From contig JAGIQG010000023.1 of assembly GCA_024679065.1 (NCBI GenBank), positions 9,982,001-10,046,000 on the forward strand: a DNA stretch of 64,000 nucleotides. The letters are read 5' to 3'. This DNA comes from Sphyrna mokarran. Its lineage: Eukaryota. Below are positions 1 to 64,000 of the stretch, one piece after another. Position 1 is the stretch's first letter; each line of letters opens with the position of its first letter. Made by a program: the position numbers and the translations under genes. The notes beneath the pieces were generated by a model that searched no databases, had not been told where the DNA came from, and saw only the letters and a program-made list of their open reading frames with translations.

Positions 1-779
1 TTTATTTTCTACATTACAACAATGATGCTATGGAAATGCAATTCTTTCTTTCAAACACAACAACAACTTTATTCAGAGTGTCTTCTCCAATTCAACCAGC
101 AAAACGTAAACAGTCTCCAACCTCTTGTCCTTGGTCTCTGCGGCCAGTTCTGAAGGAGGATTTAGAAAGGGGAGGATCAGGCAAACGAGAGCATAGAAAG
201 GCAGAGAGCCGAGAAGGTTCAGAAATTGGAGACTGATCACTGAGTAGAACCTGGAGGGCAATAAACACAGAATCATTCCCAGTGTCATATTGTGGTCAGG
301 ATAAGAATGTTAATAAAACAAAAGAAGTAATTTTTCAGGCAAGATGATTCATGTGAAAGTGCCCAAATTCCTGACATGTTGGACCGAAGTATGGAAATGG
401 ACCAGCCTGAGGAATGGGTGAGCTTGACCTGAAGAGATATTGGACCAATGGCTTTTGCGGCTGGGTGGCCAATGGCAGCAGCAGCAACAGGAATTGTTCA
501 GTGCTACAATGAAGCATGCTGGGAATTTTAGCCAAGCTGAATTAAACTTGACCAAAAGAAGGTCAAGGCATTTAGAGAGGCAAGGACTGATTAGGGACAG
601 TCAGCATGGCTTCATGAGTGGAAGTCTTTTAATGAACGTGCAGATTTCGCACAGTGACCCAGGCCAGGAATTGAACTTAGATTCCTTGCACCCTGGGGCA
701 ACACTGCTAAGTGTTATGCCACCATGCCTGGAGCTTTAAACAGAGTAATTTGAGATATTCTTTATGATGATGAAAATAC

Positions 780-1910
780 TATATTTGCAGGAAATCACTT
801 AAAGAAGAAGCTTATTATGTTTTTCATCACATAAAGAAGGAAACTAAACCTAGTGTTGCTCCTACAAAAATACCTGTATCTATAGTGACACTTGTCAGGA
901 TTACAAAATGAGCTAGTATGAAGGAAAGTGGTAAAATTCTATTAACTAACGTTCTTCATGACTTAATACTTGCACTGTTAGATACAGCTGGGATTTAGCA
1001 ACCAGAATGGTGTCCCTTCTCAAATTGGGGATCTGTGTTTTCATTTTGACTCAGAAATTGTTAGAACAAGAGACAGGGAATAGTCAAAGGGAAATAAATT
1101 TACAATCAAATGGTCAGCAAAATAGGGAATTGTTCATCGACTTAGTAACAGCTTGCTGTGTAAGCACTTGGACTGTTAATAGATAAAATTATTCCAGGAA
1201 TCATCTGTGAAGGAATTGAGCTTTTACTGTAGAAATGAAATTAAAGAATAACCACAAGCCTGTGGTGAACACAACATGTTCCACCCAGGATTAAGAGGTT
1301 AATGGATTTTCTCTGGGTTCTGCTAAATTGTACAATAGGAACTAAAAATCTTGATACAATTATGACAAGGATAACACTTAAGAATGGGGGAGAATATTGT
1401 GTTACTGCTTCACTGAAGGAATATCAATGTGGTAAAGAATATGTCGTATTATTAACAGCGCTTTTTGCTTTACACCTCAAATACCAGCTGGAATAAGCTA
1501 CATGGGATTAATTGATACACATAAGGGAAAGGAAGTTTCTTTCAATGTTACAGATAATCTTAAGGGATATTGTGAAAAATATGATACTATTGAACTTTTA
1601 ACTGGGAATCTGATACAAATTAAGAAATAGTTTGCTAATGTCTATCAAACTTTTACTAAAGTAGTTCAAAGAACTGAAGAAATTAAAAGGGACATTCAAG
1701 TTATCAAAGTCACCAAGTGGTGAGGTGATTTATGGGACTGGAGTACAAATATGCACCTCCATCCATGGATTTGTCTCATGTGATATGTTGCACTGTTAAT
1801 AATATTGTGTGCTTTAACTTATTTAATATTACTTATGATTCAGTTTGTTAAATGGAATAAAGAGACAACCCAAACCTTGAACATGGAATTGATGTTACAT
1901 AAGTGAATAT
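780..1910 (+). mobile_element. env: Second, internally deleted copy of the env-like gene, TM region retained
   Basis: Homologous to 55800-57330; QQNRELFIDLVTAC; GGEYCVTASL; DLWDWSTNMHLHPWI followed by hydrophobic YVALLIILCALTYLILLMI. Confidence 0.68.
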
Positions 1911-2049
1911 TTAGTTTATTGCAAGAATATAATTATGATTATATGTTAATTGTTAGTTTGACTGGAATCTTAAGACTAACCTGTGAGAGGGAACTTGCTC
2001 ATAATTTGTGATCCAATTAACTTCATGCTTCAGGATCAAAAGGAAGGAT

Positions 2050-2367
2050 TGTAGCCAGCAACAGCAACAATGAGAATTGTTAAAAAATACAATAAACATG
2101 CTGGGAATTTTGATCAAGTTGTATTGAAGCATTGATACAGGTCAGAGAAGGCTGAAGCAAGTTGTAACCTGTCCAGTAAGACATAACCTGTGTTGACCAA
2201 ATAAAGATTGTTGTTTGGACAGGTGCAAGATATACTGGAGCAGCTGATTACCGCCTTATACTATATATGGTGATGCTGTGTGACTTGCACACACTTTGGT
2301 ATAAACATTTCGGAGTTGCTTATGAGTAACTTCATCTGCTCTCATTGAACATTGCGATTAGTTCTCA
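2050..2367 (+). mobile_element. Putative LTR of the env-bearing element
   Basis: Polypurine tract aaaaggaagga directly before TGTAG; ends in CA, followed by PBS-like TGGTATCA. Related fragments at about 470-560 and 57340-57480. Confidence 0.55.
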
Positions 2368-2499
2368 GTGGTATCATTTGCAGAATGCCAGAGAACTTCC
2401 TGGAAAGGCATGCAAAGTTTAAGATAAAAAGAGGAACTTTGAGTCATTTCCTGAGCAGAAACATGAACATTAGTTAAGTAAAGAGCGGAATAGTAATAT

Positions 2500-13830: not shown

Positions 13831-13844
13831 TCTATTTCTAAACT

Positions 13845-26313: not shown

Positions 26314-26344
<31 letters not shown>

Positions 26345-29442: not shown

Positions 29443-31710
29443 CTGAAAAGACAACAGGTCAAAAATTGAACTGGAAATAGTTGTTTAATACAATCAGATA
29501 TATTTCAATGGGATTTACCACTATGTTGAGAGAAATCTGTCCAGCACATCTTCTAATACAATTGAATACCTCCTTGTTAGAGGTGTTGGGAACATTAATT
29601 GAATGAGTGGAATTTTCTAGAAAAAATTCAAATTATCAGGTTGAGACTGAAAACTAGTGAGTTTCTGTCCAGAAAGACAGACAGCTTTTCACACCAGATC
29701 TCCTGACATTGTCAAAAAAATCCGGGGGCGTGGTTTGTGTTGTCACTCTAGTTGGGTGCAGCCTGATTGGGCTGGCAAGGCCGTCTCCATAGAGATTGGG
29801 TACTATTTTTAAAGTTGAAGTTAAAGAATCCGCCTGTTGCTCACAGATATCAGGCTCTATCTCATGGACTTTGGGACCTCCAATGGACAAGGGAAAATGC
29901 CCCTCACATGAAGGGTCAACCTCCCCTCAGCATCCCACCACTCAAAGAATGGGTCACCCAACACCAGCCCTTCTCTGTCAGCATTCCCACTCCCACTTCC
30001 CACAGCCTCGATACCAAACCTGCCATTCAAATTCTCTAGCACCGTGCATGCACAATTCCTAACCCTACCCCCCCCCAAACCACCCCACATTGACCAAAGA
30101 TATCAGGCCCCAGCTCATTGACATTGGAATCCCCCACCATGGACAAGCGGAACAGTATTCCAAAGAAGGACTGGGGAAAGTTTATCTCTCAATGATAAAC
30201 CTCATAATCTTCAAGGGGAACCATTAATTGACCTCCTCATTGTGTTTATTGAATATGATCTCCCTGGCCATGATAATTATCTAACCATGTGGAGTTCATA
30301 TATCAAGCTTTATATGAAGCAAGACCTTGAGAGGATCCATTAACATTTTGGTCCTGGTTTCAAGGTATTGAAACTTTAACGCTGTTTCCATCAACAGAAT
30401 GTGCCTAGCCAGGTAGGTATTGCCAGCATTTTCTGTCTTTGTTACAGATTCTATCATCAGCAGCATTTTGCTTTTGCAATTTCTTCAATTCTTTTTTATT
30501 TTCAAAAGGATTATAACACACTGTGGACTAAAAGGTACATTTACTTCTTACTATTAATTAGAACTGTACTCACTGATGCTAACTGTAATTCAAGGTTATC
30601 ACTCACATATTTGAGTCAGATGATTGTGGGCTCAAGTCCTGTTCTAGTGACTTGAGCACAACCTAGGCTGAAACTACAGTAAATACTATTAGAAATGTCA
30701 ATTCTCAGAGAGACATTACACTGACGTTCTCTTGTCTTCTCAAGTGGGCATGGAAAGTTGCATGGTATTACCTTGAACAAGGTCAAGGAGGTTGTTTCAG
30801 TTCTCTGACCCTTACTTATCACTAAAACAGATGACCTAGTTAGTGTTTGTTGACTTTGCTATTGATAACTTGGGCACTTTTTGCAGCCTGTGGAGTTCAT
30901 AGAACACGTATATGTTAACTACCATTTTCTGCATCTCCACTTTCAATTTCCATAAAAAGCCGTTTTTAGATTTTGACTGCAATTCTGTCCTATGCTGTTG
31001 ATGTTTTGGCACCCAGAGGGATAACAAGAAGGAAGAGCTAGTTAACCTGTTCCTGGGCAAGGCTAAACTTGACTTCAATAGTTCCAGTGGGCAGTCTGGT
31101 GGCAGGGAAGGGGGGCCGTGTCTTCTGATTTGGCTATTTTCCACTCTTCTTCTGCTATATTCACAGATGGGTATCCTTGGCAAGGGAACATCTAGCAACT
31201 GCCAAAGCAATCGAGGTCGTCTGTGCCCATGAGGATTAAAATGTTAATCGATCCTCTCAAGGTCTTGCTTTATACAATAGAGTTGTTGTACGAACAGCTT
31301 CATTTCGCCATCAACTTTGTGTTCACCACAGTCGTGTGGTTATTATTTATTCTCTTTTATGCATCAAAAGCACGCTTCTTTCACATCCGGCTCCTAGAGT
31401 TGTCATATTCTCAAGCAGGAATGGTCAGAGAGCAGATTGTCTGCTCATGATCAAATCGCTCTTTAAGGGATCTTATCTTTCACAAATTGGTGCTGAGCTT
31501 CCTACATCACAACAATGGCTCTGAATCAGTTCCAGCATTGACCAGAACGGACTTTAAAACTGTCCTGAAGATGTGAAAAGCGCCAAATAAATGCAATTAT
31601 ATTTTAATTCCAATTGCTTTGAGCGATTGATAGAACTTAAACTGTAAGCAATTCAGACTAAGTTAATTTACAAATTAGTTGTAATTTTTGAAGCTTAAAG
31701 TGATATTTAC

Positions 31711-32034
31711 CAACGCTGCCGATTTGTGTTAAATAACTGCAATCATTCTCTGAAATGTGGATCACTGACACTGTAACCATTTCACTGGATTTGTCTCCCT
31801 GGTTATTTGAGGCTGTGCAGTAATATTGATGATGTCGCTGTGTGAAGTATTGACAATGTAGATCCAGTTTATTGGTGTCAGAGATCTTTGAATCTTCAGA
31901 CGGGGTCTTTTTATACCACGTGTACTGAATGGGAAGTGATCCCTGGACCGACTGACAGGAGATGGACACTGAGCCCCCAGAACATGAGGCATTTGGTGGT
32001 GATAGAAATTTCAATTCAGGAACAGACACGGGTT
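31711..32034 (-). CDS. Ig C2-type domain 1
   Basis: EPVSVP..GGSVSISCQSVQGSLPIQYTWY..YYCTASN; 324 nt; phase 1-1; canonical splice sites. Confidence 0.92.
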
Positions 32035-33120
32035 CTGTGGGAAGAAAAACAATCATTAATGGATTTTTCACAGTCACTTCATTGCAGTGTTAATGTAGGC
32101 CTTCTTTGTGGCACTAAGTCAAAAAAGCTTTAACTTTAAATTTAAAAACTTTAGTCATTAAGAATGACCAAAAAGTTAAATAGTTTCATATTATCAATAT
32201 TTCTCAACCTCACCCAGGGTATGAGGAGGAAAGGAAATTGTTAGAGAGAGAGAGAGAGTGCGATGGCAGTGGAAACTTGGCCGAATGCATGTAGTATCTA
32301 TTGATTGTTCTCATGGACAGCAGATATTCACGATAGCAAATTAGTTAGTGACAAGTATTGGACGTTACCCGAGATAGACTCTAGATGTTTGCTGAGATAT
32401 GGAGATTTAAATACCTTTCCTAAAATCTAACCTTATCCTGAATTCTCTGATTTCAGGTGATTAGCCCCCACTGCCAGTTGGAAGAGGGAATTTGGCGCTC
32501 AGGCAAATCTCCATTCACAGTGGGACTGGATAATTCCAGCTGTGGATGAGTTTGGTGAATTCCAGCCATTGTTTTTATTTGTTTTAACATTTAACATTAA
32601 GTGCCATTTGACATTTAAATGTCAGTATTGTTTAAAGTCTAGGGTGAGGTTTTATGGCCTCAAATGAATGAGACTGGAAAACCCTGCCCAAGGTCAACAG
32701 ACATTTCTGTTGTCTGTCCCACACCTGCTCCAATACTATGGCAGGCAAGGCAGTAAAATTCCAACATAAGTATCATCCAAAGGACATGAGCTGGGAGATA
32801 GAAACCATCAGTTGACAGCAAACGAAATAGTTAATTGGGGAAATTGGCTTGAACTGCTCTTTTTGTACTGAGTCCCTTTGTTTCTGAACTCAGGGCTGGA
32901 GTCTGACTTCAACTGAGTGTGGAGGTTTAAGGAACTGAAGGAATTTACTACAGGGGAAGTGAACTGTTGGTGAGCATCTGGTAAGTGTTTGAGAAGTGAT
33001 CAAGGTCTATTCCCCAGGCATCAGGAGCATGGATAGGGTCCTTGCCAATTTGTTAACCAGTAGATTGTGGTCCAAAGTGCTCTGAATCCATTCCAGCATT
33101 GACCACAATGGACTTTAAAG

Positions 33121-33230
33121 CTATCCTGAAGATGTGAAAAATGCCAAGTATATGCAATTATATTTTAATTCCAACACTGGTTCTGTGGGAAAGAAACAAA
33201 CATTCAGAAACTGACTGAATATCTAAAAAT
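33121..33230 (-). pseudogene. Remnant of a deleted C2 exon (intact 3' splice site plus first codons EPV)
   Basis: tttctttcccacag|AACCAGTG matches the C2 acceptors (cf. 26199, 32034) but is fused directly to sequence matching the intron that follows C2 (cf. 31518-31614). Confidence 0.75.
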
Positions 33231-46395: not shown

Positions 46396-47342
46396 TTGTT
46401 TTGTGCTTATCTGAGGTTTTACAGGGACAACATTTAACATCCCAAATGGGAAGAAGTAATACCTTGTTCCGAAGTCAAACCTTCAACCCCACATTCCCCA
46501 ACACTCTGTATGACCCTGAATCAAGAGGGCAGGTTACCCCACGTGATGACCAGTCTTAAGTGAATGAAGAATTAATACAGATTCGACCAATAAATTGGGC
46601 CATAAACTCGGTGTCTGTAATATCAGGTGGACAACTCTGTAGTTAGAACTAGGTTAGCCCAGGGAGATTGGTAACATTTACAGGAAGGAATTCAGTGAAA
46701 ACCAGACCCAGACACTAATCTTTACAAGGGACATGGTTCCACAGTTCCCATGTAACAAACCTAAGAAGGAAATAATTGTGGTCAGTCATGCCTATTGGAA
46801 GAAGTTCCTCTGTATATATTTGAACCATAAGTGGCCCTAATGGATACAGTGGGGTGATGTCCCCAACTGGATCTGGGATTGGGGGGAGAGAGTTGTTGGA
46901 GTTATGCCCATAAGGAAGTGGGTTTAAAGCTTCCCAAGCTTAGTAAAGCGATTGCGATTGCCTGTTGTAAGAACAGCTCGCGTGGTAGAGAAGTTGAGAT
47001 GATCTGGGTTAAGAGACAGAAAAGCCCAGGTAACCCCCCAAAATCAGGATTGGATGAGTGCTACCACGGGGAGTGGAGATAGGCACAGAAGAGAAAATGA
47101 ACCAGATTAATATGCTACACATGCACCAGTTCCAGATCCAATGTGATAAAGCCTACCAAAAGGCACAGCGGCTGTCAGTGAGAGCGAGACTTTACTGTGA
47201 TAGGTGAAGGATGTTAAACATAAATGCAGTGACCTGCAGGCTGCAGTAAAAGTTTTGCTCCAAGGAGGAAAAGAAAATACTGCCCATGCAACAGACCACT
47301 CCAAATGTCTGCGCAAGATTGAAGATTTAAATCACAACTAGT

Positions 47343-47470
47343 GGGGCAGCAGGGTGAAACAGTGGTTAGCACTACTGTATCACAGAGCCAGGGACCCGGG
47401 GTTCCAGCTTGGGTCACAGTCCGTGTGGAGTTTGCACATTCTCCCTGTATCTGCGTGGGTTTCCTCCTTG
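47343..47470 (+). mobile_element. V-SINE 5' fragment
   Basis: ggcagcagggtgaaacagtggttagcact..gtggagtttgcacattctcc. Confidence 0.75.
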
Positions 47471-48486
47471 AGTCCGAAAGAGGTGCTGGTTCAGTGCATT
47501 GACATGAAGAGGAATTGCTTCTCTTCATTCACAACTATGGGGTTCGAATCGGAGACCATGACTGCCCCCAGCCTCTCCAGTGTGGGTGTGTGTGATGCCA
47601 AGTGGAATGGTGCTGGGAGACCCCTGGTAGAAGGTGAGGTGGGAGGCCACCCTATCAAATGCCTTTGAGAAACAGTGAGTCCCTGCACTCCTTTTAACAC
47701 AACCAGAGATATTGGTTTTTCCTGGTGGAGGCAAGGGACAATTATTTTGAGTGGGTTACAGGACATTTCCAAGACAGAGTTGAAATGGACTCGATTGAGT
47801 TTAAGTTGAGGACGCAGTTTATTTTCACCTTTTTATTTTAGTCTGTCTTCCCTGAATGGCAGAGCACATTCTGGGTTTTAATGTTATTAGCAGATGTAAT
47901 CTGTCTTTTGACCTGTCACATTGTTGTATCTAGTAGATGACTGATGTGAATGAAACTCCAAATCAGATATCCTCAGGGACTTATGCAGACAGGATTTGTA
48001 CAGTTGGGGAGTTTTGGGTTAAACTTGTCAATATGTCTGAAGGTGGAATGAAACAAGAGACAATTGCTGAACATGCAACTGCATTTGTGATGCGTAAGCT
48101 TGACTGTGGTCGAATGAGAGGAGAACTAATTGGAGAGGGACCGGAGCCAAAACCTCAAGGCAGTGCAGCTGCCCTTAAAAAAGCTGAAGGGGAGATTACA
48201 AAAATAATCACGAGTCTCTTTACAACAGGGAGATTTATGACTTGTAGTTTCCACAAACAAATCATCAATTTGGTCAGTTAGGAAACCCGTTGGTTCTTGG
48301 AGACTGACAGTTGATTAGTTAAATAAATGAACTCCATTGACTTGAAAAACAGTAATCCCCAGACAACGATGAAACAGACTCCACAAAGTAAGATAAAAGC
48401 AAAATACGGGGTGCTGGAATCTGAAACAAAAACAGAATATTCTGGAAAATCTCGGCAGCTCTGATAGCATCTGTGGGGAGAGAATT

Positions 48487-49503
48487 GATGTAGAGATGCT
48501 GACATTTGGACTGGGGTAAACACAATAAGAAATCTCACAACACCAGGTTAAAACCCAACAGGTTTCTTTGGTAGCACGAGTCATTACCCAGCACTGCTGG
48601 TACTTCCCTGGAATGGAGAAGCTACGACATCTTTTCCAGAGCCTTCAACATGTCATTGATGAAGACAAATATCTCACCAACGCCATCCCCACATCCTCGC
48701 TTCTTGCCTTCAAACAACCGCACAACTTCAAACAGACAAATTGTCTACAGCAAACTATCCAGCCTTCAGGAGAACAGTGACCACAACATCATAGAACCCT
48801 GCCGCAGCAACCTCTGCAAAATGTGCCGGATTATCGACACGGATGCCATCATCTCACGTGAGAACATCATCCACCAGGTACACTACATACACTTGCATCT
48901 CGGCCAAAGTTGTCTACCTAATACACTGCAGGAAAGGATGTCCCAAATACATTGGGGAGACCATCCAGATGCTACGACAATGAATGAATGAATACTGCTC
49001 GATAATCACAAGGCAAGAGTGCTCTCTTTCTGTTGGGGAGCACTTCAGCGATCACGGGCATTCGGTCTCTGACCTTTGGGTAACCGTTCTCCAAGGCTGC
49101 CTTCACAACACACGACAATGCAGAGTCAGTGAGCAGAGACTGATAGCCAAGTTCTGCATACATGAGGATGGCCTCATGCAGGACCTTGGGTTCATGTCAC
49201 ACTACCTGTAATCCCCATTACGTGCCCGGGCTTGCAAAACCTCCTGGCTGGAGACAATACACATCTCTTTAACCTGAACTGAACCCTCTTGCCACTCACA
49301 TTGTCTGTACCTTTAAGACTTGATTACCTGTAAAGACTCGCACTCCAACCATTATTTTGTAAAGTGAGTTTGTGTCTTTATATACCTCATTTGTGAACAG
49401 AACCCCCACTTACTTGATGAAGGGGCAGTGCTCCGATAGCTAGTAACTTGTGCTACCAAATAAACCTGTTGGACTTTAACCTGGTGTTGTGAGACATCTT
49501 ACT
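48487..49503 (+). mobile_element. Penelope-like element (GIY-YIG endonuclease end) with 10-bp TSD gggagagaat
   Basis: PCRSNLCKMC..VVYLIHC..YIGET..RMNE..VGEHFSDHGHS..EQRLIAKF..GL; short inverted 5' piece; TSD on both sides. Confidence 0.9.
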
Positions 49504-49998
49504 GGGAGAGAATAGAGCCAACGCTTTGAGTCCAGATGATACTTGACTAGAACTAAGAGAAAAGAGAAGCAGCAGAGATTTATACTATTTGGGTGGGTTG
49601 GGGTGGGGGGTAGTGTGGCAAGGGGGTTTGGAATTGGACAAAGGAAATGTAAATGAGGGTACAGAAGGCTGAGAAAGTGCTAAGAGTGCCCATTCAATGA
49701 TCAGAAGTGAGAATGGCAGAACAGAGGCGCAGATGGTTAAAGGACAGCCTGAGGAACGTGGCAGTTTCACATGGAGGGGTGGACAGGGAAAGAAGGAGAA
49801 CTGGAATGGTGTATTGGAAAAATAGTAGTGAAAAAGAAAGATGATAAAATGGATGAACGAATCAAAATGAAATGGAATAAAGTAAGTAGGAAAGGAGTGA
49901 AGGTGGAGGGGAGAGTTTATGATTTGAGGTTATTGAACTCAATGTTCTGTCCGGGAGGCTGTAAAGTGCCCAATCGGAAGATGAGGCGCTGTTCCTCC

Positions 49999-50799
49999 TG
50001 TGGATAAATGTAGCATCTAAAATGGCAATTTGTAAAGCACTCTGGGACAATTGGGCAAGAACTAAAGCGACAGGTTGCAGGCTAAAAGACAGAGACAAAC
50101 AAGCTTCAACCTGATGAATGATTACATACGATAATCTCTAGGACAAGAGACTTATTGGTCAAACTATATTGTGAACCAGACATAGGGGCGCTGTAACCCC
50201 TCATTTAAGAGGAAGGTGCGTATTCTATATGCTCCCATCACCTGCAGACATGGCTGTTGGAGACACACCCAGAGATTGGTGTGGGAGCATCTGATTGGAC
50301 TTTATTGATCAGAGTGATCAAGTCCTGGAAGATTGATTGGCAATGGCCAAAAGGGGTCCAAAACCCAGTTTGGTATAAAGGGTGCTGCGCGACAAAAGTA
50401 TCCCTCTCTCTCTCTGACTCCATGAATGACCTACAACAACAGTGACCGTCATCAGCAGTGACCAGCACGAGGAGAGCCACCACACCCAAGAAGGAAGGAA
50501 GACCAGACCCAGATTGCCAAACCAGACCAAAGGACCAGACTACGCAGAGGATGACTGAGACCAGCACACAGGTAAAGGCCAAAATCTGCTTCGGTACAAC
50601 CAGTCACGCAAAGTTAAATCTTGTATTGAACTTGAACTTTAGTATTTTTTGTAAGATAACTTATTGTTGGTTGGGTGGATGGTTATTGATTGTGTGTTTT
50701 AAATAAATATTGGTTGTACTAACAAGATGCTTACGCGCATGATTCTACTTCTTTGTCCATCATATAAGAGCTAAAACAGGCTGTACGGCAGGCACAACA
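49999..50799 (+). mobile_element. Solo LTR (801 bp)
   Basis: TG..CA ends; near-TSD ctcc/ttcc; TATAAA at about 50374; AATAAA at about 50702; interrupts the Penelope sequence. Confidence 0.75.
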
Positions 50800-52299
50800 T
50801 TCCAATTTATGTTTGCTATGTTGGGGTTTGCTCGAACATTGGCAAGCGACAGGAAGATCAGGGTTCTACTTGCAGATGGACCAGAGGTATTCAGCAAAGC
50901 AGTCCCCTAATCTGCGTTTGATTTCTCCAATGTAGATTAGACTGCATTGAGAGCAGTGAATGTAATAGCCCAGATTGGAGGAGGTGCGTGTGAAGCACTG
51001 CTTCACCTGAAAGGACTTAGGACAGTGAGCAGAGAGGAGGTAAAGGGGAGGTGTTGCATCTCATATGATTGTGTGTCATGGTGGGCAGCAGGTGAGGTAT
51101 TGAGTGTGATGGAGGAATGGACAAGGGTGTCTCAGATGGGGCAGGGAAGTGGGTGTGAGTAGTGGCATCATGCTAGAGTTGACAGAAATGGCGAAGGATG
51201 ATCCTTTGAATGCGGAGACTGGTGGAATGGAAAGTAAGAACAAGGGGACTATCCTGGTTCTGGGAGGGATGGGAGAGGGTGAGAGCAGTAGCCCAGGGGA
51301 TGAGCTGGATACGGTTGACAGCCCTGTCAACCACAGTGGGTGGAAAAACACGACTGAGGAAGAAGGAAGACATATTGGCAGTGCTATTTTGGGAAGTGGT
51401 ATTATCTGAATAGATGAGGCGGAGGCGAAGGAACTGAGAGAATGGAATTGGCTCCTTACAGGATGTGGGGTGTGAAGAGATGTAGTTACATGGTCTCTCA
51501 GTTCCTTTGTCACTTACTCAGTTGCTAAGATCAGTCCAATCTGTAAAGCATATTGGACTTTAATGCTCCAGGGTCAAGATATTACAGCCAAACGGACTAA
51601 ATTGCCCAGTTACTGAGCTGACAATCTAAATTACAGCGGTGAGCCTCATAAGCATTAAATAGTGGCAACAAATGATCCCAAGGAACCATTTCTGCCAAAA
51701 CAAAAGGGAGGAGGATCCGTGAAGCCTGCTTGATCTGGTATTTATCTGACATACCTGTGCAGACACAAAATATTTTTGTTGCTGGATCCTCTGTTGTGGA
51801 GGAGTGACAGGATGTGGGATCTATGTTGAGGTTGACCAAAGAATACCTCTTGTTGATTTAGCTATAAAACTATCTAGTGGAATGAGTGCTCATGCAGCTG
51901 AGCTGACTGCTGTGGTCTATGTGGTTAGTCACCCTGGTAAGTTCCCACGCCGTGTTGATATATCTATATTCTGACAGTAGGTTTGCCTGCAATAGAGGAA
52001 CTGACTTCTTCCACTGTGCGAAGTGAGAGGTTTTGTTTCAACAGATGGGAAACCTCAATCGTCACTAAAATATATTTTTCATGTTGCCCAAGGATGGGAA
52101 TATGGGATCATGGGGCACATCCCCTCCCATTGGGAATTCTTGAGCAGATGAATTGGCAAAACAAGGTGTTCGAAAAGGGAGAATCATTGCAACTTCCAGT
52201 AGATGAACAACAATTAAAGTAAAATGTTTATTTATTAGTCAGAAGCAAGGTTTGCATTAAAACTGCAATGAAGTTACTGTGAAATTCCCCCAGTTGACA

Positions 52300-52500
52300 T
52301 TCCGGCACAGTTCAGGTCAATGCACCTACCAGCACATCTTTCAGAATGTGGAGGAAATTGGATCACCTGGAGGAAACCCCACGCAGACACAGGAGAACAT
52401 ACAAGCTCCACACAGACAGTGACACAAGCTGGGAATCAAACTCAGGTCCCTGATACTATGAAGACAGCAGTGCCAATCATTGTGTCACCGTGCTGCCTAT
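52300..52500 (-). mobile_element. V-SINE (antisense) inside pol
   Basis: ggaggaaaccccacgcagacacaggagaacatacaagctccacacagacagtgac. Confidence 0.8.
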
Positions 52501-53224
52501 GACAGATAAATGCTGTTACTGTTTGTCAGGTGAGTATGGAGGCTGGAATTCTCCCATCCCATCCCTACTGGAATTTTAGCTTACAGGTTGCGGACAGTGT
52601 GAAACCCCATTGACAGACAGGCAGGAATTATTGGCTTTTAGATCTGTATAGCCAGGGAATTCCACCTGAAGATCTTAAACAGGTTCAATGCAGTGATGAT
52701 GATTCAGAATAGGTACAAGATGGAGCATGCCTTCTAATGACAAATGGAAAGATAAGTTTCAACCACAGGATGTGTTTATTCTTATGAATGGATTGTGTGT
52801 GGTATCAACCCAAGATTGTAATCAAATCAGTTACCAATGATGTTCAGGGTCATCAGGGAGCAGAAACAACTGCTGATTAAATTAAAGGGATGCTGGTGGC
52901 CGAATGTGATGAAGGAAGTAAAGCATTATGTAGATAATTATTGAGTATGTCTTCAAAATAACCGTCAATGTAACAAAGTAAAGGGAAATTGAGGCATACA
53001 GGAGTAATTGAAGGGTCAATGACTAATTCGCAGATGTTGGTCCTTTACCACCATATCAGGGAGGATATCAATGCATCCTGGTAATAATTGACATTTCCAG
53101 TGAGTTGAAGGAATCACTACCTGTAGTAACACAACTAAAGTGACAGCTAATATTCTGGTACAGCAAGTGTTTACCAGCTGGGTACTCCCAAGTAGCACTG
53201 AATCAGATCAAAGCATTCTTTTTC

Positions 53225-53800
53225 CTATTTGATTTGATTTGATAAATTATTGTCACACGTATTGCCATGGAGTGAAAAAATATTGGATCTCTTGCACCCT
53301 GTACAGATAAAGCATACCATTTTTAGAGAAGGAAATGAGAAACTACAGAATGTAGTGTTAGTCATAGCTGGGGTGTAGAGAAAGATCAAAGAAATGTGAG
53401 ATAGGTCCATTCAATGATGGCAGCAGGGAAGATGTTCTTCAGTGGTTGGTACATGACCTCAGAATTTTGTATCTTTTTCCAGGCGGAAGAAGATGGAAGA
53501 GAGAATGTCCAGAATGCGTAGTGTCCTTAATTATGCTGACTGCTTTGCCAAGGCAGTGGTTAGTGTAGACAGTGTCAGTGAATGGGAGGCTGGTTTGCAT
53601 GATAGATTGAGCTACATTCGTGACATTTTGTAGTTTCTTGCAGTCTTGGGAAGAGCAGGAACCACACCAAGTTGCAAAACAACCAGAAAAACTGCTTACT
53701 GTGGTCCATCTGTAAAAGTTGGTGAGAATCTTGGAGATGTGCCAAATTTCCTTAGCTATTTGAGAAAGTAAAGGTGCTGGTGAGCTATTGCTCGAATTAT
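53225..53800 (-). mobile_element. LINE 3' fragment splitting the integrase core
   Basis: (atttg)n tail at 53227; integrase sequence stops at SDQ and resumes at HVAYHP. Confidence 0.6.
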
Positions 53801-55449
53801 GCAGAGTGTCATGACCTCATTTTGGATCAAACAGAAGTTCCACGTTGCCTATCATCCTCGATTGAGTGGGGTAGAAGAAAGGATGAATCATCCTTTAAAA
53901 ACACTGATTCGGAAAAGTGTAAACAAAATCATTCCACGTGGAACACATTAATACCCTTTGTTCTGATGATAACACAAAATTCAAGTGCATTTACTCCACA
54001 TGTTTTAATGACTGCACATCCCATGAGGGGAATTGAACTTCTTTTAGGATTGGACTTTTCTGAATCTGAAATAATTGCCCTCAGTCATGAGTGAATTGTA
54101 CAGCAGTAGCTGTCCAATGATCAAGCTGCCCAAACATCAGTCACTGTTAAAATGGGACATAGAAGGAAGCAGGATAAAGCTTATTTTGATGGTAAAGTGA
54201 ATCCAATAGTGAATAAAATGGGACAACAGATTTATCAACCAGGTACATTCGTCTCTTCTAGAAATTCTGGACTCCATTCCATTGTAGATAAAATGAGTCC
54301 ATCTTCGTACAAGGTATTAACAGATTCTGGAAAGGCTGGAAGGTATTATGTAAATCAAATGGAAGTGCATAATACTCAGTGTAATCATCAATATCATGTT
54401 ATATTGAAAATATGTGACCCATATGCTCGTTCCTTTTCTTTTTGGTTTGCTTCTTCTCTGCCTGATTCTTTATCAATGCAGACTTTGCAGACAGATAATC
54501 AGACAGAAAGTCAGACACATAGTCTGATATTGCATGAACCCTGTCACAGGGATCAATGAAGCTCGCTTGGGTATGAGACGAGCAAAATCGTTTTGTTAGA
54601 TTCCTCGCTGTGAACAAGGGGAGAAATGATGAGCTAACAGGTATTCAGATTGTAGAAATTCAGGGCGAGGGAAATCTGGTGAAGAATGACATGGTTGGGC
54701 AAGCTCCAAATGATGAGATGACTCCTGTTCACCATGATTAATCATTTCTGATACTCAAGAACTGATTTTCATTCTGTTTGTTTTGGCATTGAGCATTTAG
54801 CTTTTAGCTTTTGTTTTCTAGGGAAAATCTTACAGCCTCACCAGAGATGTTATCATCCTAATCCAATTCTTCATAAATATCAAGAAAGATCTAACTTATT
54901 AATATCTGCATAAATTGGTAAACATTGTATATCAACCGTTTCTGGAAATTAAAACAGTTCAAATAAGAAGCCAGTTTGGTGACTGGACAAAATAGTAGGT
55001 ACAATCTTGATTCAATTTTAGAGTGTTTTTGGATGGAGTTCTTTATGGAAATCATTCTCCTTGGATCAGTGATCAGTGCATTATTGTGGGAGATGGTGTT
55101 TTAAGATGAACATATTGAAGACCAGCTGGGAGATCTATGCTTTACTCCAAGAGAGTAGGATGTTATGAAAATGGATGTTTATGGGTTGAGTTTGATGTGT
55201 TGGTAATATTCGGGTGAGAATATCAATATGTGGGAGATTCTATTCTCAAATGGTAAAACAGCTCCTACTGTGACACGACTCAAATCCAATCTGACCCAGA
55301 TTAAAGTTGTTTTATCTTTTCATCTCCATCTTGTTTGAGATTGTATATAAAATCTGTTTTCTGCAAAATGGGAGGGCTAATCACAAAATCCTTGTATTGC
55401 AGAAGGAGATCATTCGGATCATCGAGTCTGCACCGCTGCATTCCCATGC

Positions 55450-55700
55450 AGGCCCTATCCCCTTAACCAGATGCATTTATCCCAGTTAGGCCCCCTGATG
55501 ATAAGAGGCAATTTAGGATGGCCAACACAGTTAGCCTGAACTTCTTTGGACTGTGGAAGGAAACCAAAGCACCTGGAGGAAAGCCATGCAGACACGAGGG
55601 GAGAACATGCAGAATCCGCATAGTGACGCAAGCCAGGAATTGAACCCAGGTCCCTTACGCCCTGCGGCAGCAGTACTAAGCATTGTGCCACATGCCAGTA
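55450..55700 (-). mobile_element. V-SINE (antisense)
   Basis: ctttggactgtggaaggaaaccaaagcacctggagga..ccaggaattgaacccagg. Confidence 0.8.
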
Positions 55701-55799
55701 GCTTTAAACAGGGTAATTTGAGACTTTTTTATGATGATGAACATTGGATATTTGCAGGGAATTGCTTAAAGAAGATGATTATTATGTTTTTGATTACAT

Positions 55800-57330
55800 A
55801 AAGATGGAAACTAAACCTACCACTCCTAAACCTAGTGTTGCTCCAACAACAATGCCTACATCCAGTGTGGATGCTTGTCCTAAAGTAACCTCAGGACCAC
55901 AAAATGGGTTAGTATTGGAGGAAGCTGGTAAAATTGTATACAATAATATCCATTACGAATTAATACCTGGACTGTTCGATATAACTGGGATTCAAGAACC
56001 AGAATGGTGTCCTTCTCAAATTGGGGATCTATTTTTTGTTTTGACTCAGAAGTTGTTAGAACAGGGAATAGTGAAAAGGAAATAAATTTACAATCAAATA
56101 GTCAGCAAAATAGCGAATCGTTCATTGACTTAGCGACAGCCTGCGGTGTGAACATTTCGACTATTAAAACACTTGATCCAGTCAATTTGGATAATAAACT
56201 AAGAATTTTAATACAAAAGATCAAACACACTTTAACTAATATAAATACTAAGATCAATTGAACACTAAAGAGGAGTTAGTTGAAAATCAAGTTGATAACT
56301 ATACGGTTCCAATATCAGAATGGACGTTCTCAAACTCTAAATCAAAGCACGGAAAGAAAAATAACAGATGATGTTTGACAGCAGGACAGGACTTTGTGAA
56401 GGATTTAATGGTAACTGGATGATAAAACAACTTCTGTAGAACTTCTTGAACAAGTTAACCAGGGAAAGGTTCCATCTTGGATTAATAATGTACAGTTAGA
56501 ATATTTGATTCTTGGAGAGAGACATCCAAATATATCGGGTTGTCAATTTTAACAGCTGAGGGGTTTGGCTTGAGAACAATTGTAGATAAAAAAACCTAAG
56601 GAATGATGTTAGAAATTGCAAAAATTGCAATCGATGAAATTGGTTTAAAGTTTTCTGAAGTAGAATCTGTAGGAAATATTGAAAAGTACAAGTGCATGGG
56701 GGGTCATATCTTCCCATAAGCCATTGAGAAGAAGGGTCGATTAGTAGATACTAATCTGAATCAATGTCAACAAATAGAGGAAATAATTATGTGCTCTAAC
56801 CCCATATATTCTAACAAAGAGGTTTTATGTAGTTTTAAAACAGATGTGAATTTAAGTTGCGGAATAGAAGCTAAAAGTCTTGATACAAATATTACAAAAA
56901 TAGCTTATAAGAGTAGGGGAGAATATTGTGTTACCTCCTGACTGGAGAAATATCGCTATGGTACATTAATAAGTAATATTACTAATACCCATTTTTGCTT
57001 TAAACCTCAAATACTAGCTGGAACAAGCTGTATGAAATTCATTGATACACATAAGAGAGAGGATGTTTCTTTTAATGTAACAGCTGGTCTTAAGAGATTG
57101 CTGTGTAACTATGTTTAAAAATATGAACTTTTACTAGAGATCTAATACAAATTAAAACGTAATTTGCTAATGTCCATCAAACATTTCCTGACGTGATTCA
57201 AAGAACTGAAAAATTTAAAAGGGACCAATCAAAACAACTAACTGATGGAATGAGTTATGGGACTGACATATAAATATGTAGATTCATCCATGGATTCGTT
57301 AATTGTCATGCTGAAGTGTTAATAACAGTT
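55800..57330 (+). mobile_element. env: Decayed env-like fusion glycoprotein of the same LTR element
   Basis: GLVLEEAGKIVYNNIHYELIPGLFDITG..EWCP; FIDLATACGVNISTI followed by a heptad-like run; QGKVPSWI; Cys-rich NQCQQIEEIIMCSNP..LCSF..SCG..GEYCVT; HPWI before the TM. Lies after the integrase and before the LTR-like sequence. Confidence 0.7.
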
Positions 57331-58799
57331 TGTACTTCAATTAACAACAAAAACAACGAGAATTGTTAAGAGCTACAATTAAGCATGCTGGGAATTTTGG
57401 ACAAGTTGTGTTGAAACACTGATAAAGGTCAGAGAAGATTGAAACAAATCGTGACCTGTCCAGTGAGACGTCAACTGAGACTTGGCGTGTCAATTGGGAG
57501 TTGTTTAAACTACACCAAACGCTGTGATCAGTTTCCAATGGTATTCATGGTTACCTTTTAGAAAATATTGTGGTAAGATGTGCAAAGTTTACATTAAAAA
57601 TAGGAACTTTGAATCATTTCCTTAGAGAAACTCAAGAAGGTGGAACTCAGAGTTTGTTATTGTTAGTTAGAAAATGGATCTGTTGTAAATGGTAAAGAGT
57701 TGATAATGTTGATCAAGAACTCCATTGCAGTATTACGTAGTAGTAGATAATATCAAAATGGTCAGGAGTGCAAAGTGAAATCTGGTTTAATAAAGTTAAT
57801 GAATTGAAAGATAAAGAGTGGGAATATTAATATAAACTAATTGTTTACTATAGAGGAACATTGTCTCTGACAGAATCTCATAAAATCATATCTCAGCAAC
57901 TGTACGTTAAACAGAAACTGTTGCAAACGAGAGACATGTTCTATTTGCAGGATTATTATCACTGTAGTTTTCAATGTGGATTGCACACAGATAATCTGAA
58001 TTTTACCATCCCACCCACCACAGGAATCGGAGCGGGCGATGGGCAGACAGCGAGAAGCTCTACTGAACTCGGGCGGATCAGGACATTTCAGGACAAGCGA
58101 GAATGTAAAACCTCCCCCCACAATTTCAAACAATTACCAATTAAAGGCAGCTTCCATTTTAAAAATGTGGCTTGACTAGATTTTTAAAAATTAAATTATC
58201 CTTAATTTTAACAATTAATAATGCAGTTTTCTTTATTTGCTGAATGTATCAATATGGCGCTAATATATTCACGAGGAGATACATTACATCACAAATATTA
58301 TTCATTTATATTTGTTAAGTATTTTGTGCCATTAAACTTAGGAGACTGCCGAATCTAGAGGCACAGGAAGCAGACAAAGGAAATGTGTGTGTCTGTTCCC
58401 AATAACTTGTTCTTCCCGGATCTGGTTACAAGCCTGAAGTTAGAGACTATAGCATGAGGGACAACACTCCACATCAAGACATTGCTAACTGAGTATCTTC
58501 CTCTCTTACCACCCACCTTCAGCGTATGATTGAGCCTTTGATAATCAAATAATAAAGTTTTCACTTTGATAATCAGGTTGGTCTTGTTAGAAACCACCTT
58601 CCATTCCCATCAATCGCAGAAGCAGGACTCAAACCTGGAGCTTCTGGCTCAGATACAGAGACTCTACCCACTGCAACACAAAGTCATATTTTGTGCCTTT
58701 GCACATCTCCAAATATTTAACTATCTCTGCCGTATAAGCTGAAGGTTAGAGTTAAACTAACACTGATTATCTGACTATCCAGTTCTGGCTGTTACTCAC

Positions 58800-58836
58800 C
58801 GGGCAGAGAGGAAATTAAGAGAATCAAAATCCGCAT
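58800..58836 (-). CDS. Paralogous leader exon (MRILILLISSLP) with no Ig exon of its own downstream
   Basis: 37 nt; G|GTGAGT donor; duplicate of 4263-4299. I found no V exon between it and 39594. Confidence 0.7.
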
Positions 58837-60079
58837 CGTTCTGTTGGAGATCAGATCAGTGTTTGTTACCAGTCACCCAGCTCTTGTTTCTCACACTGAA
58901 AAAAAAGACTTGAATATAAGTTGTAGAAGGAATTTAAAAAGGGAAGAAGACAGCAGGAAGTTATGTCATGAAGGCTCAATCATCCAGATGATGAAATCTG
59001 GTCCACAAGGTCTTGAACGTCTGTTAGTCGTATCTAATAAAAGAATTACACCAGCTTGCATTGAGGGAAACACTCTAGAGTCTAGGTTTGTTCATCTCTC
59101 TAAGACTCACAGAGGCAAATTTCCCATTCTGCCTGTCACGGGAATTGTGACAGGCAAGAGTCAGACCAGGGAAGCTTTGTTAAATTCAGGTGGGATTTTC
59201 CAGTTTCAAGGTGAGCACAGTCAGAAAATCTTTGACATTAAGTCAGAGATCTGAACATGGGAGAGATAATTGATAGCCATAAATATAGATATAAACTGGG
59301 TGTTAAGGATAATGTGCAAGGTCACCTAGCATATTCAAACATTTACACTGATTGGTTATTATAATTAAGCAGGTGTGCAGAGGTCGTGACTAGTTTTTAA
59401 CATTTGTATCTCATGCATGATGTAACCTGAATCAAGAATTGTGAATGGACAGAGATAATTCCTATAGAAATTGATACTTCTGATTGGTATGTGTTAATTA
59501 CGTATAATCAAACCTGGAAGTATATTTGTTTGTGCATTCATTGTTCTAGCTTGTCACTAGCTGGCATGCTAGGGCTGTTACTATAACTACTAATAAATAG
59601 CTGATTCAAAACCTGGTCTGGCTACCTGAAGGGAACAAAATCTCCAGCAAGACAAAGGGTTGAGCAAAAACAGCCCCACTACAGTTTTATGAAAATAACT
59701 TAAACATAAAGTTTCATTGACAATTTGTTTTAATTTGCTTAATGTCAATCTTGTTGTTGGTGATGAGGAACAATTCTGTCAGGATGAGGAGACCTGATAT
59801 TGGGTGGAACAGTCTTCGCTGCTCCATGAATCAGATCCACAAACAAGTTTTGAGGCAGATTTCAGGCAGGAAATGAGCTCAATTCACAGAGAAAATTCTC
59901 TAAGCAAAAGTAAATTGTGATTGAGTAACTGGGAGGCAGAGTCAATGTAAGGACATCTCTGTTCAACTCCCTGAAATGGGGCTGTGTATTTCTCTAGACA
60001 CAGTTGGTGGTGAGTGAAGAAGGAGAATGACACTTTCTTCAAACAATGAATACATTAAGTTAGCGAACCTCGAGTCCTA

Positions 60080-60820
60080 AATGGTTTACCCTGTTTCTTT
60101 GTGCTCTGACCCCTGGTTCTGGACATCCCCACCATTAGAAAATTCCTTCATGCATTTATCTTGTCCAGTCATGTTAGAATTTTACAGCTTTTTATGAGAT
60201 TCCTCCCTTATTCTTTGAAACTCCAGGTATTGGAATCCTAACCAATTCAGTATTTATTCAATTATCAGTCCTGCCATCTCAGCTTTCAGTTCTGTTTAAC
60301 CTTCACTGCACTCCATCCATAACAAGAATATCCTTCATCAGATAAAGACACTAAATCTGCACACAGTATTCCCAGTATTGTCTCATCAAGGCCCTGTATA
60401 ACTGCAGCAAGACATTCCTTTTCACAATAACTTCATTGCAGTGTTAAAGTAAGCCTACTTGTGACATTAATAAATAGACTTTAAACTTTAAATTGCTGTT
60501 CCTATACTCGAATCCTCTTGCTATGAAAACCAACATACCATTTGCAATCTTTACCATTTGCTGAATCTGCTGCCTCACTTTCAGCGACTGGTGTACAAGA
60601 TCTTGTTATACATTCCCCTCCCCCAATCTATAACCATTCAGATAATAATCTGCCTTCCCCTTTTTGTACCAAAGTGGATGACTTCACGTTGATCCACATT
60701 ACACTGCATCAACCATGCATTTGCTCACTCATTCAACTTGTCCAAATCACAGTAATGCATTTCTGCATCCTCCTCACATCTCACCCTCCCATCCAGTTTT
60801 GTGTCATCTGCAAAGCTTTC
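60080..60820 (-). mobile_element. CR1 LINE fragment
   Basis: Antisense ctgcacacagtattcc and aaagtggatgacttcac..gtgtcatctgcaaa. Confidence 0.75.
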
Positions 60821-61419
60821 CTCTATTTATCTAACCCTTTTCTATTTCTCCCCTCCTTAACTATTTATTCAGCTTCCCCCTGAATGTGTTTATTTCCTTC
60901 AATTAACCTTTTATTGCAATGAATTCCAGATAGTAACCCTATTTGGGTGAAGATCTTTCTCCTGTGTTCCTTTCCCTTCCCTGTAAATTGAGTCATTTAG
61001 CATTACTGCATTACAGGGAAGGCCAGATAATCACAAAAGGGAGGGAGAGAAGAAGGATATGCAGATAGTGTGAGATGGAAAGGGGTGGGAGGAGACTCAA
61101 ATGTAGCATAAGACGAGCATCGAGCAGGTGGTCTAAATGGCCTGTTCCTGCTGCAAATTCTCAGCAAATTCTCTATCATCCAATTTTGGACATTTTCAAT
61201 TACTCATGTTCATATTTATTATCCTTAACAGGTTATCATGCGGAGTCTTGTCTCCTTGATACATAGAACATCTATTGAGACTGAAAAATGACAATATAAC
61301 CTCTGGCTCAGTTACAGATTCTGAAATTTTCCAGCTGTTCATGTCCTCCAACCACTGCCAAATTTCAGATCACTGCTGTGGGACAGGAGAATCCTGGTTT
61401 TAAGCAAGGTTGAAGATTC

Positions 61420-61565
61420 TGCCTCAGAGACTCTACCCACTGCAGCACAAAGTCTTCTTTTGCACCTTTACATGTCTTAAATATTTAAACATCTGCCATA
61501 TAAGCTGTAGACTAGAGTTAAACTAATGATTGTTTCTGACTATTCAATTCTGGCTGTTACTCACC
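61420..61565 (-). pseudogene. Leader-exon donor and intron-1 remnant truncated by a Penelope insertion (duplicate of the 13.87 kb site)
   Basis: Matches intron 1 at 58640-58800 up to the donor, then taaggagtctcacacaacaccagg. Confidence 0.6.
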
Positions 61566-61819
61566 GTAAGGAGTCTCACACAACACCAGGTTAAAGTCCA
61601 ACAGGTTTATTTGGTTGCAAAAGCTTTCAGAGCATTCCTTCTTCTTCAGGTGAATGAAGAGTTGTTATTTGTCATTATTCACAACTCTCCCTCCACTGTC
61701 CCCCTGGACTTCCTTCTCAGCAGAGGGAACACTCTGCTTCTTATGATCATCATTATCAAGTATGTCATCCTGCTGCTGTGCTAAGTTACATCAGAGCACA
61801 GCAGACCATCACCATGTGG

Positions 61820-62250
61820 GAGATTCTCTGGGGACTGCACTGCAGAAACCCTCTGGGGACTGCACTGCAGGGACCCTCTGGGGACTGCACTGCAGGGACC
61901 CTCTGGGGACTGCACTGCTAGGACCCTCTGGGGACTGCACTGCTGGGACCCTCTGGGGACTGCACTGCTGGAACCCTCTGGGTACTGCACTGCTGGGACC
62001 CTCTGGGGACTGCAGTGCAGGGACTTTCTGGGGACTGCACTGCTAGGACCCTCTGGGGGCTGCACTGCTGGGACCCTCTGGGGACTGCACTGCTGGAACC
62101 CTCTGGGGACTGCACTGCTGGGACCCACTGGGGACTGCACTGCTGGGACCCTCTGGGGAGTGCACTGCAGACACCCTCTGGGGACTGCACTGCTGGGACT
62201 TTCTGGGAACTGCACTGCAGGGACCCACTGAGGACAGTGTTGCAGGGACC
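61820..62250. repeat. Paralogous 25-bp minisatellite (ggggactgcactgcagggaccctct)n, about 17 units
   Basis: Tandem units at the position equivalent to the 14.1 kb array. Confidence 0.95.
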
Positions 62251-62931
62251 CATTGGACTTGTCAAGGCTGCAGAAAGACATCTTAACCATCCTGATGCAA
62301 TATCTGATCATAGACATATAGGCACTGCGAGCCTTGTTGTCGCGGTCCTGGTTCCTTCTTTGAAAAATTAGTAGCAATTCGTGCCCATGTGACAACATAC
62401 TGGTGGGTGGGAAGATTCAATGAGGTTTGAAGATTTGACTTTACCCTCGCCAATGAAGTTATAATGCATTCAAATTGATGCAAACCTAGTTCTCACCCTC
62501 CCTGAGTATGGACCAAATCACAGCATCAGGGAGGGATCAGAAATCTAACAGGGGCAAATGCAATTTTTGTCCTTTTGTAATATTTTGCGGACATGACAGG
62601 ATTTGAGCCTGGAGCTAACACCGTCGCTAAATTGTACCTGTTATGTTATTGGTAGGCTGGGAATGTGGGGGTGATGGATATTGAGTGGGATGGAAAACTG
62701 CATATTGAGACCACTGCTATTTCTCATTTATATCAATAACTCGGAAGCTCATTGTTCACTGATTAAATATGACAATGATACCAAATAGGAAACGGCAGTC
62801 AATCTGGAGGGAATAACTTAGAGTACAGACAAGTTGACAAAGTAAGTTCATGGACAGTTCATTGCAGATGAAATTTAATTGCAAAGTAAGAAGGAATAAT
62901 ATTCATCACGTGCTCTTCATAAATATTTTTC

Positions 62932-63206
62932 CTAATGAGTTATGTTATTATATATTGCCATTTCAGATTCATCAAAGTTTGTGTGTTGTCCTTTATGAGC
63001 TGTCATTGAATATTGACACATCCTCATTGTTAACTGAGTGTCTCAACCTCTTAACTCTTTAGGCTTTTGAATCTGCAGTGCTGCATATGTGACTCTTTCC
63101 TCATTGTTAGTGAAGCGGACAGTTTGCTTGCCATGTGTTTCTGCTGAGTTCCCTCGATTGCACTTTACATTGGCATACTCATTTTCTCTTCCAGAACTGC
63201 CAATTG
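62932..63206 (-). pseudogene. Paralogous terminal ITIM exon with a 1-nt deletion and a premature TGA (gene continues beyond the right edge)
   Basis: Aligns with 15618-15893 but is 275 nt. Phase-0 reading gives QLAVLEEKMSMPM*. The shifted frame gives EYANV..VTYAAL..ELRG* with TGA at 63043-63045. Confidence 0.8.
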
Positions 63207-64000
63207 CTGCAAGATAGAAAATAAAGATCCAATTTATTTCCATTTAACTTGAATGGAGATTAATGGAGACATTAATTTCTAGATTATTGCAAATCAATTC
63301 ACAAGTGATCGCAGCATTTGGTAATATATCTCCAGCAGTGAAACACATCATTTGTCCCAACTCCATATAAACCTGTCCAAATAATCTCATCAAAATAACA
63401 TTCAAATCCTTTCTTCTCATTGCTTATCCAGCTTCTGTTTGAATGCATTTCAGCCATTTGCCTCAACTGTTCCCTGTGGTGGAAAAATCCACATCTGAAC
63501 ACTCTGGATAAAGATGTTTCTCTTGAATTCGCTGCTGGATGAATCTTTTTTATTCACACATTGAATGTGGGCATCACTGGCTGGGCCAACAACTGTTACC
63601 CATCCATAATTGGATTGAGAGGGGGAATTTTTGAATTGTATGTAGGCCAGACCAGGCACAAGCAGCAGATTTCCTCAGGGAAATATCTCTAAATGACATT
63701 AATGAAATGGAGTTTTTACTGGAATCAGCAATAGTTTTATGATCATCATTAGATCTTTAATTCCAGACTTTTATTGAGTTCTGCCTTGGTGGGATTTGAA
63801 CTCAAGTCCCCAGAGGATGATTCTGCATTTCTAGATTACTAATACAATATCACTTCATCAGTACCTGTTATCAATGACTATCCACTATTTATGGTCACTG
63901 TTTTTGGTCTTGCCTGCAATTGGAAACATCTTTGTTATCTCTTCCTGAATCTTGAAGATCTCAATCAGATCATTAATCAGAGAAATCCAGCTTGCTGAAT

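Follow-up and report, generated by a model that had tools for sequence, protein, structure and literature searches.

Gene order of a shark provirus

What remains of a retrovirus in a 64,000-nucleotide stretch of the Sphyrna mokarran genome (assembly GCA_024679065.1, contig JAGIQG010000023.1, positions 9,982,001 to 10,046,000 of the forward strand), and to which lineage did it belong? In this stretch, hereafter the window, a single strand carries between 46.8 and 57.6 kb the remnants of protease, the start of reverse transcriptase (RT), RNase H, integrase and env, in that order (Table 1). We put at about 60% the reading that this is a dead provirus of a shark retrovirus family whose envelope (Env) is probably of the F type, like that of paramyxoviruses, and whose polymerase likely belongs on the side of the canonical retroviruses, near snakehead retrovirus, and not within the lokiretroviruses (Loki). 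A first-pass annotation had described a Loki-like element at 51865-57480 with the order RNase H, integrase, env and an LTR-like end (LTR, long terminal repeat). That order holds, with the motifs where the annotation had placed them and the frames broken. The element exceeds the reported span: decayed gag, protease and the RT start lie at 46.8-48.3 kb, and the part from the tether (connection domain) to the LTR occupies 51.5-57.6 kb. The annotation had seen no RT, but its start lies upstream of the span then reported. Stop codons, frameshifts, deletions and host repeats interrupt the locus; it is heavily decayed and long dead, and most likely has no present-day activity.

Identification of the integrase is secure. 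Its X-read translation matches all 20 reference Pol proteins (E 5e-27 to 1e-5), the zinc-finger half matches Pfam Integrase_H2C2 (E 9e-4), and the core piece matches solved integrases (best E 7e-4). RNase H scores are weaker than those of the integrase (Pfam RNase_H E 0.12, best BLAST E 0.017), and its motifs SAHAAEL, YSDS and RGFVSTDGKP, the retrovirus-style motifs of the first-pass annotation, stand in the correct order. It is 29-30% identical to epsilonretroviruses, 25-29% to gammaretroviruses, 25% to snakehead retrovirus, 20-22% to Loki and 11-12% to gypsy rows. By its identity to epsilonretroviruses as against gypsy, and by its motifs, this is a second, retrovirus-type RNase H, which is a feature of Loki. 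The X-read RT piece matches 12 of the 20 reference Pols at E <= 3e-4 (best 6e-9), and foamy protease-RT makes up the top five of its seven PDB matches (best E 0.039). The tether remnant has a best BLAST E of 0.29 and is identical to Loki at 12 of 43 columns, a weak match. No Pfam or PDB support was found for the protease remnant. The gag remnant gave no Pfam match and no significant match among six reference Gags, and the capsid part of gag, not found in the window, is apparently missing.

Contigs from one public DNA run, which may be the window's own sample, bear on the integrity of the locus. Four of the contigs listed match low-copy stretches of the window with 0 differences, which makes misassembly an unlikely source of the decay. 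Summed contig depth is 43-150 across the viral parts, compared with 1e3-1e6 in repeats, and related contigs are few; the viral parts thus have few close copies. Four further listed contigs represent a paralog, 85-89% alike, that covers regions of both halves of the element.

Table 1. Features of the provirus and its duplicate, in window positions
Feature	Position	Strand	Basis or remark
Env remnant of copy A, lacking its middle, plus transmembrane segment, purine tract and LTR-like start	634..2462	+	duplicate segment
Probable gag remnant	46840..47560	+	N-terminal part; by-eye translation and position; low-copy in DNA run; weak
Coiled-coil stretch of gag	near 47090-47330	+	by eye
SINE-type (short interspersed element) repeat splitting gag remnant	47344-47473
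Protease remnant	47615..47920	+	snakehead retrovirus Pol residues 14-33 versus 47615-47674: 55% identity, 26 bits
RT, N-terminal 54 residues	48177..48339	+	2 frame pieces; RT core absent
Later host repeats at expected place of RT core (3.1 kb)	48380..51480	.	depth 1e3-1e6 in DNA run
Solo LTR of unrelated high-copy family	49999-50799	.	TG...CA ends, CTCC/TTCC flanks
Tether, C-terminal part	51518..51697	+	by eye versus snakehead and Loki tethers; weak
Retrovirus-type RNase H	51769..52170	+	three motifs across 5 frame pieces
SINE-type insertions between RNase H and integrase	52194..52497	.	many matches elsewhere in window; depth >1e5
Integrase	52510..54380	+	7 frame pieces scored; includes C-terminal part
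Integrase zinc finger	52830-52980	+
Integrase core	53030-53223 and 53790-54055	+
High-copy repeat splitting integrase	~53224-53770		depth in DNA run
Pol-env interval, probably holding env N-terminal extension	54400..55410	+	low-copy up to ~55060
SINE-type insertion within env, common to copy A	55411..55695	.	alignment of copies A and B (634-1179 versus 55603-56167) starts inside repeat
F-type env core (probable), copy B	55822..57323	+	four collinear frame pieces versus shark-only Env profile
LTR-like segment, inferred 3' LTR start	57345..57631	+	82% and 70% matches to 2059-2190 and 2348-2462

The repeats at the expected place of the RT core include what we take to be LINE (long interspersed element) and Penelope sequences, and the other repeat-family labels used here are likewise presumptive. 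The solo LTR among them sits in a host repeat inside the provirus and has TATA-like and AATAAA signals. The pol-env interval has a pyrimidine tract with an AG end near 54770-54822; no Pfam match was obtained there, nor did the N-terminal domain of the intact Mustelus Env described below match it. One frame at ~55150-55200 bears a loose resemblance to the end of an immunoglobulin (Ig) V domain, with no Pfam support.

An envelope probably of the F class

The env core lies in two copies, copy B in the provirus and copy A in a segmental duplicate of 55603-64000 that includes the host flanks. From its N-terminal side, copy B has a Thr/Pro linker, a first strand, a decayed cleavage-site position, a region of fusion peptide and heptads, the motif GKVPSWI (56463-56483), a Cys-rich block, a second heptad region and the start of a transmembrane (TM) segment. 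Its four frame pieces match a profile built from shark Envs only at E 6e-14, 5e-4, 2e-36 and 4e-4. A search of 1.84 billion proteins with the piece 56240-57121 gave nine at E <= 1e-3 (best 2e-24), and the piece 55822-56070, beyond that query, matches an intact relative at E 1e-13; because of these two results the env is beyond chance. The heptads, GKVPSWI and Cys block of the first-pass annotation were all recovered, whereas its C-terminal TM is complete in copy A and only begun in copy B. There ~250 bases have been deleted, and with them the rest of the TM, the tail of env and the polypurine tract, so that the TM start now adjoins the LTR-like segment. Copy A retains these parts, with a purine tract at ~2038-2048 followed by an LTR-like start with TG at 2050. 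The LTR-like end proposed earlier therefore stands as the start of one such segment; no upstream 5' LTR partner and no target-site duplication were found, and decay may have erased an LTR. Another stretch of the LTR-like start, 70 bases long, lies at 476-546, upstream of the copy A env, and on the minus strand window positions 1-460 resemble, by eye, yet another LTR.

Relatives of this env occur in six shark species and the coelacanth. The direct ones are Mustelus asterias XP_078074422.1, proteins of Heptranchias, Heterodontus, Chiloscyllium and Rhincodon, and the three proteins P0001, P0002 and P0010; they are 22-42% identical to the window env over the Cys-rich block. Over ~125 columns the window env is 42% identical to P0010 and 25% to P0012, and it groups with P0001, P0002 and P0010 at support 84/95. 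P0012, an intact Env of Mustelus, has 714 residues with a signal peptide, an RSKR site, heptads, a Cys block and a TM. The layout of signal peptide, RxKR site, fusion peptide, coiled coil and TM is whole in this protein, while the window holds collinear remnants of it with no intact RxKR. The cluster of P0012 in Mustelus asterias has seven members, five of 699-722 residues, from several large contigs. Several of its Envs are full-length and near-identical: the Mustelus asterias family has been active recently and its Env is intact. In this it differs from the dead window locus, in which the N-terminal domain of P0012 is also unmatched. A Latimeria protein (P0005) is matched both by a shark query and by a Loki Env profile (E 3e-5), and may bridge the two Env groups. 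A shark family with an F-type Env is apparently new to print, since searches of the open-licence literature found no paper on one; subscription papers and repeat databases lay outside that scope.

Which class of fusogen is this? The annotation had suspected a decayed RxKR in copy A, and the segment concerned, QQNR-ELFIDLVTAC from 1115 (QQNS-ESFIDLATAC in copy B from 56103), does belong to the frame piece aligned with profile positions 243-383, the positions that include the RSKR site of P0012; neither copy keeps R-x-K/R-R at the cleavage position. It had also seen no CX6CC or immunosuppressive motif, and here no CX6CC or LQNR-type motif was found in three frames of both copies, an absence that is weak in decayed DNA. 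The intact P0012 likewise has no CX6CC, which two gamma-type controls carry. These findings speak against a gamma-type Env.

The envelope is probably of the F-type class, that of the measles-type fusion protein. Among 229 reference open reading frames (ORFs), the 12 matches of the shark-only profile at E < 3 are two Loki, nine foamy and one walleye dermal sarcoma virus (WDSV) Env, and no gamma or delta Env was matched. The best single match is a Loki Env (E 9e-4), with scores of 11.1 bits for Loki and 9.1 for foamy. Foldseek, which the annotation had proposed as a check, places paramyxovirus F at ranks 1-4 and in 18 of the 44 rows listed, all at E > 0.001. In BFVD the Env of walleye epidermal hyperplasia virus 1 (WEHV1) is first (E 0.099) and the WDSV Env third, within E 0.1-0.25. 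In the nearest clusters of the ESM Atlas, a language-model resource (similarity 0.91-0.94, 198-208 shared features), 38-46% of the members carry Gypsy env, 11-28% Baculo_F, and 21% and 80% Fusion_gly. By analogy with F proteins, furin cleavage would free the fusion peptide and the two heptad regions would collapse into a helical bundle, merging the membranes; the N-terminal extension would likely be the attachment part.

The match of the shark profile to the WDSV Env (L047 5962-9648), with walleye virus Envs first in BFVD, hints that the epsilonretrovirus Env is itself of the F class. The snakehead Env (L001 6131-9532) has no CX6CC and by eye is shark-like, with a Thr/Pro stalk, a CPK-x-GP start, a basic cleavage site and heptads; it has an Ig-looking stretch near its N-terminus, and Pfam gave no F or Ig match.

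Placement of the polymerase

Reference loci were fetched by RT motif patterns. Snakehead retrovirus (L001), WDSV (L047) and two percomorph Loki (L003, L008) were matched to rows of the alignments in the Loki paper, and foamy, gamma, delta and gypsy references were labelled from their motifs, the sizes of their genes and where they fell in the trees. The trees rest on 51 RT columns, a long decayed branch and two near-identical Loki references. Fish foamy-like endogenous retroviruses (ERVs) were compared by eye only, the computed sets being without fish foamy-like or CmiERV rows. Groupings were judged by approximately unbiased (AU) tests.

All three trees that include RT place the fragment inside the canonical retroviruses (98/98, 94/98 and 96/98), nearest to snakehead retrovirus or ERV-L/S. 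The tree of RT, tether and RNase H makes it sister to snakehead retrovirus at 82/75, and the other two RT trees do not resolve the point. By a small margin, identity is highest to snakehead retrovirus (25 of 51 positions), followed by two other fish or ERV-L/S-like rows (23) and Loki (22). By eye, a G-S-W in the RT motif is common to snakehead retrovirus and HERV-L and occurs in 0 of 24 Loki rows, and the YWKKV-type RNase H strand of Loki (24 rows) and its GNxYxLTxT-type integrase strand (7 rows) are absent from the element. The RNase H tree places the element away from Loki and foamy viruses, weakly (61/88; AU p 0.15 for a Loki/foamy grouping). The RT screen of Wang and Han (PMC7947760, PMC9040795) found Loki in none of six chondrichthyan genomes, Rhincodon and both Chiloscyllium included, so that the annotation was right about the known host range. 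A non-Loki RT is supported because Rhincodon and Chiloscyllium carry the shark env yet had no Loki RT.

Several results weigh against the preferred reading. For the F-type part, fold support is weak, with low-confidence models and non-significant Foldseek matches, and PF00523 matched neither 13 relatives including P0012 (E <= 1) nor six window frames, whereas two true Loki Envs used as controls match it (E 1.2e-5 and 2.2e-3). For the polymerase, a Loki grouping is not rejected in the RT trees (AU p 0.053, 0.070 and 0.43), the best BLAST match of the integrase is to both Loki references (100 bits, next 84), and grouping of the integrase with snakehead retrovirus is rejected (p 0.025). Some of these results suit a divergent lokiretrovirus or a sister lineage of Loki, which would be the first from cartilaginous fishes and would have escaped RT-only screens. 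Its tether and the best match of its Env profile would also point to Loki, weakly in the first case, and a Loki grouping survives every test; the integrase forms no Loki clade in two trees, and neither Loki (AU p 0.26) nor gypsy (0.20) is rejected for it. We consider this reading unlikely, since the element falls outside Loki in every best tree with RT, its RNase H is closer to epsilonretroviruses, the Loki motifs are missing, PF00523 is unmatched and the Env profile scores foamy Envs about equally.

How, then, does the element compare with Loki? The Loki papers describe the same gag-pol-env layout, a tether with a second RNase H, and an Env with signal peptide, RxKR site, fusion peptide, coiled coil, TM and an F-like core, and of 20 references the Loki integrase is closest. 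Other marks of Loki are a Gag capsid similar to those of MuLV and Ty3, an RNase H that falls with that of foamy viruses (group I), an integrase of the Loki/CGIN1 group and an LTR on either side. Unlike in Loki, the RT fragment and RNase H lean towards the canonical retroviruses, the shark Env is only ~21-23% identical, and it has an N-terminal extension of ~130 residues and a Thr/Pro stalk that none of the Loki Envs seen possesses. The envelope works in a Loki-like way; Loki membership lacks proof, and similarity to PF00523 fails. Of the label Loki-like, the retroviral RNase H, the probable F-type env and the closest integrase stand, whereas the RT, the RNase H and PF00523 speak otherwise. The fallback offered by the first-pass annotation, a related unclassified lineage, is the best-fitting reading.

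The differing affinities of the domains could also mean a composite, either two insertions (gag-protease-RT and tether-RNase H-integrase-env) or an old recombinant of a Loki-related integrase and env with a canonical RT and RNase H. The halves are separated by 3.1 kb of repeats, and Wang and Han describe repeated replacement of RNase H and integrase in retroviruses. The halves nevertheless share strand, expected order and a similar low copy level, the paralog spans regions of both, and the RNase H, contiguous with the integrase, leans canonical too; a composite is improbable.

The phylogeny of pol, another check that the annotation had called for, rejects foamy and epsilonretrovirus groupings both for RT, tether and RNase H concatenated (p 0.017 and 0.037) and for the integrase (p 0.011 and 0.015). 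Membership of the Spumaretrovirinae, represented by mammalian-type foamy references only, and of the epsilonretroviruses (WDSV, WEHV) was rejected accordingly. A foamy-like or epsilon-like shark ERV would fit the F fold of the foamy Env (PMC11468914), the foamy and WDSV Envs among the profile matches, the walleye virus Envs in BFVD and the RNase H identity, which is highest to epsilonretroviruses. The Pol tests make it very improbable, as does the size of the intact Env: P0012, with its N-terminal signal peptide, has 714 residues compared with ~990 for foamy Env and 1229 for the WDSV ORF. Foamy Env and the F proteins of paramyxoviruses and pneumoviruses (PMC11468914) probably share with the shark Env a core of cleavage site, fusion peptide, heptads, Cys-rich beta domain and TM, but the shark Env is much shorter than foamy Env and the fold match is below significance. 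The epsilonretrovirus Env resembles it in being non-gamma and in giving a domain match to the shark profile (E 0.003).

An env-bearing Ty3/gypsy element of the errantivirus type, which would be no retrovirus, is suggested by the arthropod Gypsy env in the top Atlas clusters and by an integrase for which gypsy is not rejected. It is scarcely credible, because the element has the second, retroviral type of RNase H, the RT trees separate it from gypsy at 100/100, and Chary and Hayashi report that vertebrate genomes contain no intact env elements of the invertebrate type. Ty3/gypsy membership was rejected on the RNase H and the RT trees.

Snakehead retrovirus and the SnRV-like ERVs (clade Huo of Xu et al. 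2018; CmiERV lineage I of Han 2015) are nearest in the RT fragment and the start of protease. They differ in the integrase, and the snakehead Env, a 1134-residue ORF, is unmatched by the shark profile; CmiERV lineage I has, by eye, a gamma-type Env. Two metagenome contigs (L002, L006) hold an intact fish-type ERV with a SnRV-side Pol and a gamma-type Env.

Age of the locus and the ancestry of retroviral envelopes

Copies A and B differ by a Kimura two-parameter distance of 0.14-0.31 over seven segments. Because the SINE-type insertion in env is common to both copies, the env was already interrupted when the segment was duplicated. The locus thus gives a minimum age, being older than a duplication now 14-31% diverged. 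A distance of ~0.18 corresponds to ~40 million years at 2.2e-9, the rate used by Wang and Han, and to ten times that at 2.2e-10, the rate that Han 2015 assumed; with two rates ten-fold apart the age is only bracketed. The old segmental duplication (634-17090 / 55603-64000) is 75-87% identical, has at least one more paralog in the DNA run, and carries a 25-base tandem array in both duplicates (~14127-14975 and 61731-62330). Younger local duplications, 86-95% identical and up to 1.7 kb, lie at 25832-33174.

This locus is a poor object of study, and its value lies in its intact relatives. The shark family is a sampling point in the only class of jawed vertebrates in which Loki has not been found. 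If a shark F-type Env does accompany a non-Loki polymerase, an F-type Env is no marker of Loki, as follows also from the F-like Env that foamy viruses carry (PMC11468914). Wang and Han leave undecided whether an envelope was gained once and later replaced or gained separately, and Wang and Han 2022 prefer a scenario of two origins. A tentative and rather doubtful extension of our reading is that sharks host an old, recently active lineage near the split between Loki and the canonical retroviruses, combining a Loki-like integrase, an F-type Env and canonical-type RT and RNase H. If so, and with the Envs of Loki, foamy, walleye and probably snakehead viruses F-like as well, retroviruses would have started out with an F-type fusogen, for which gamma- and beta-type Envs were substituted later, contrary to the two-origin scenario.

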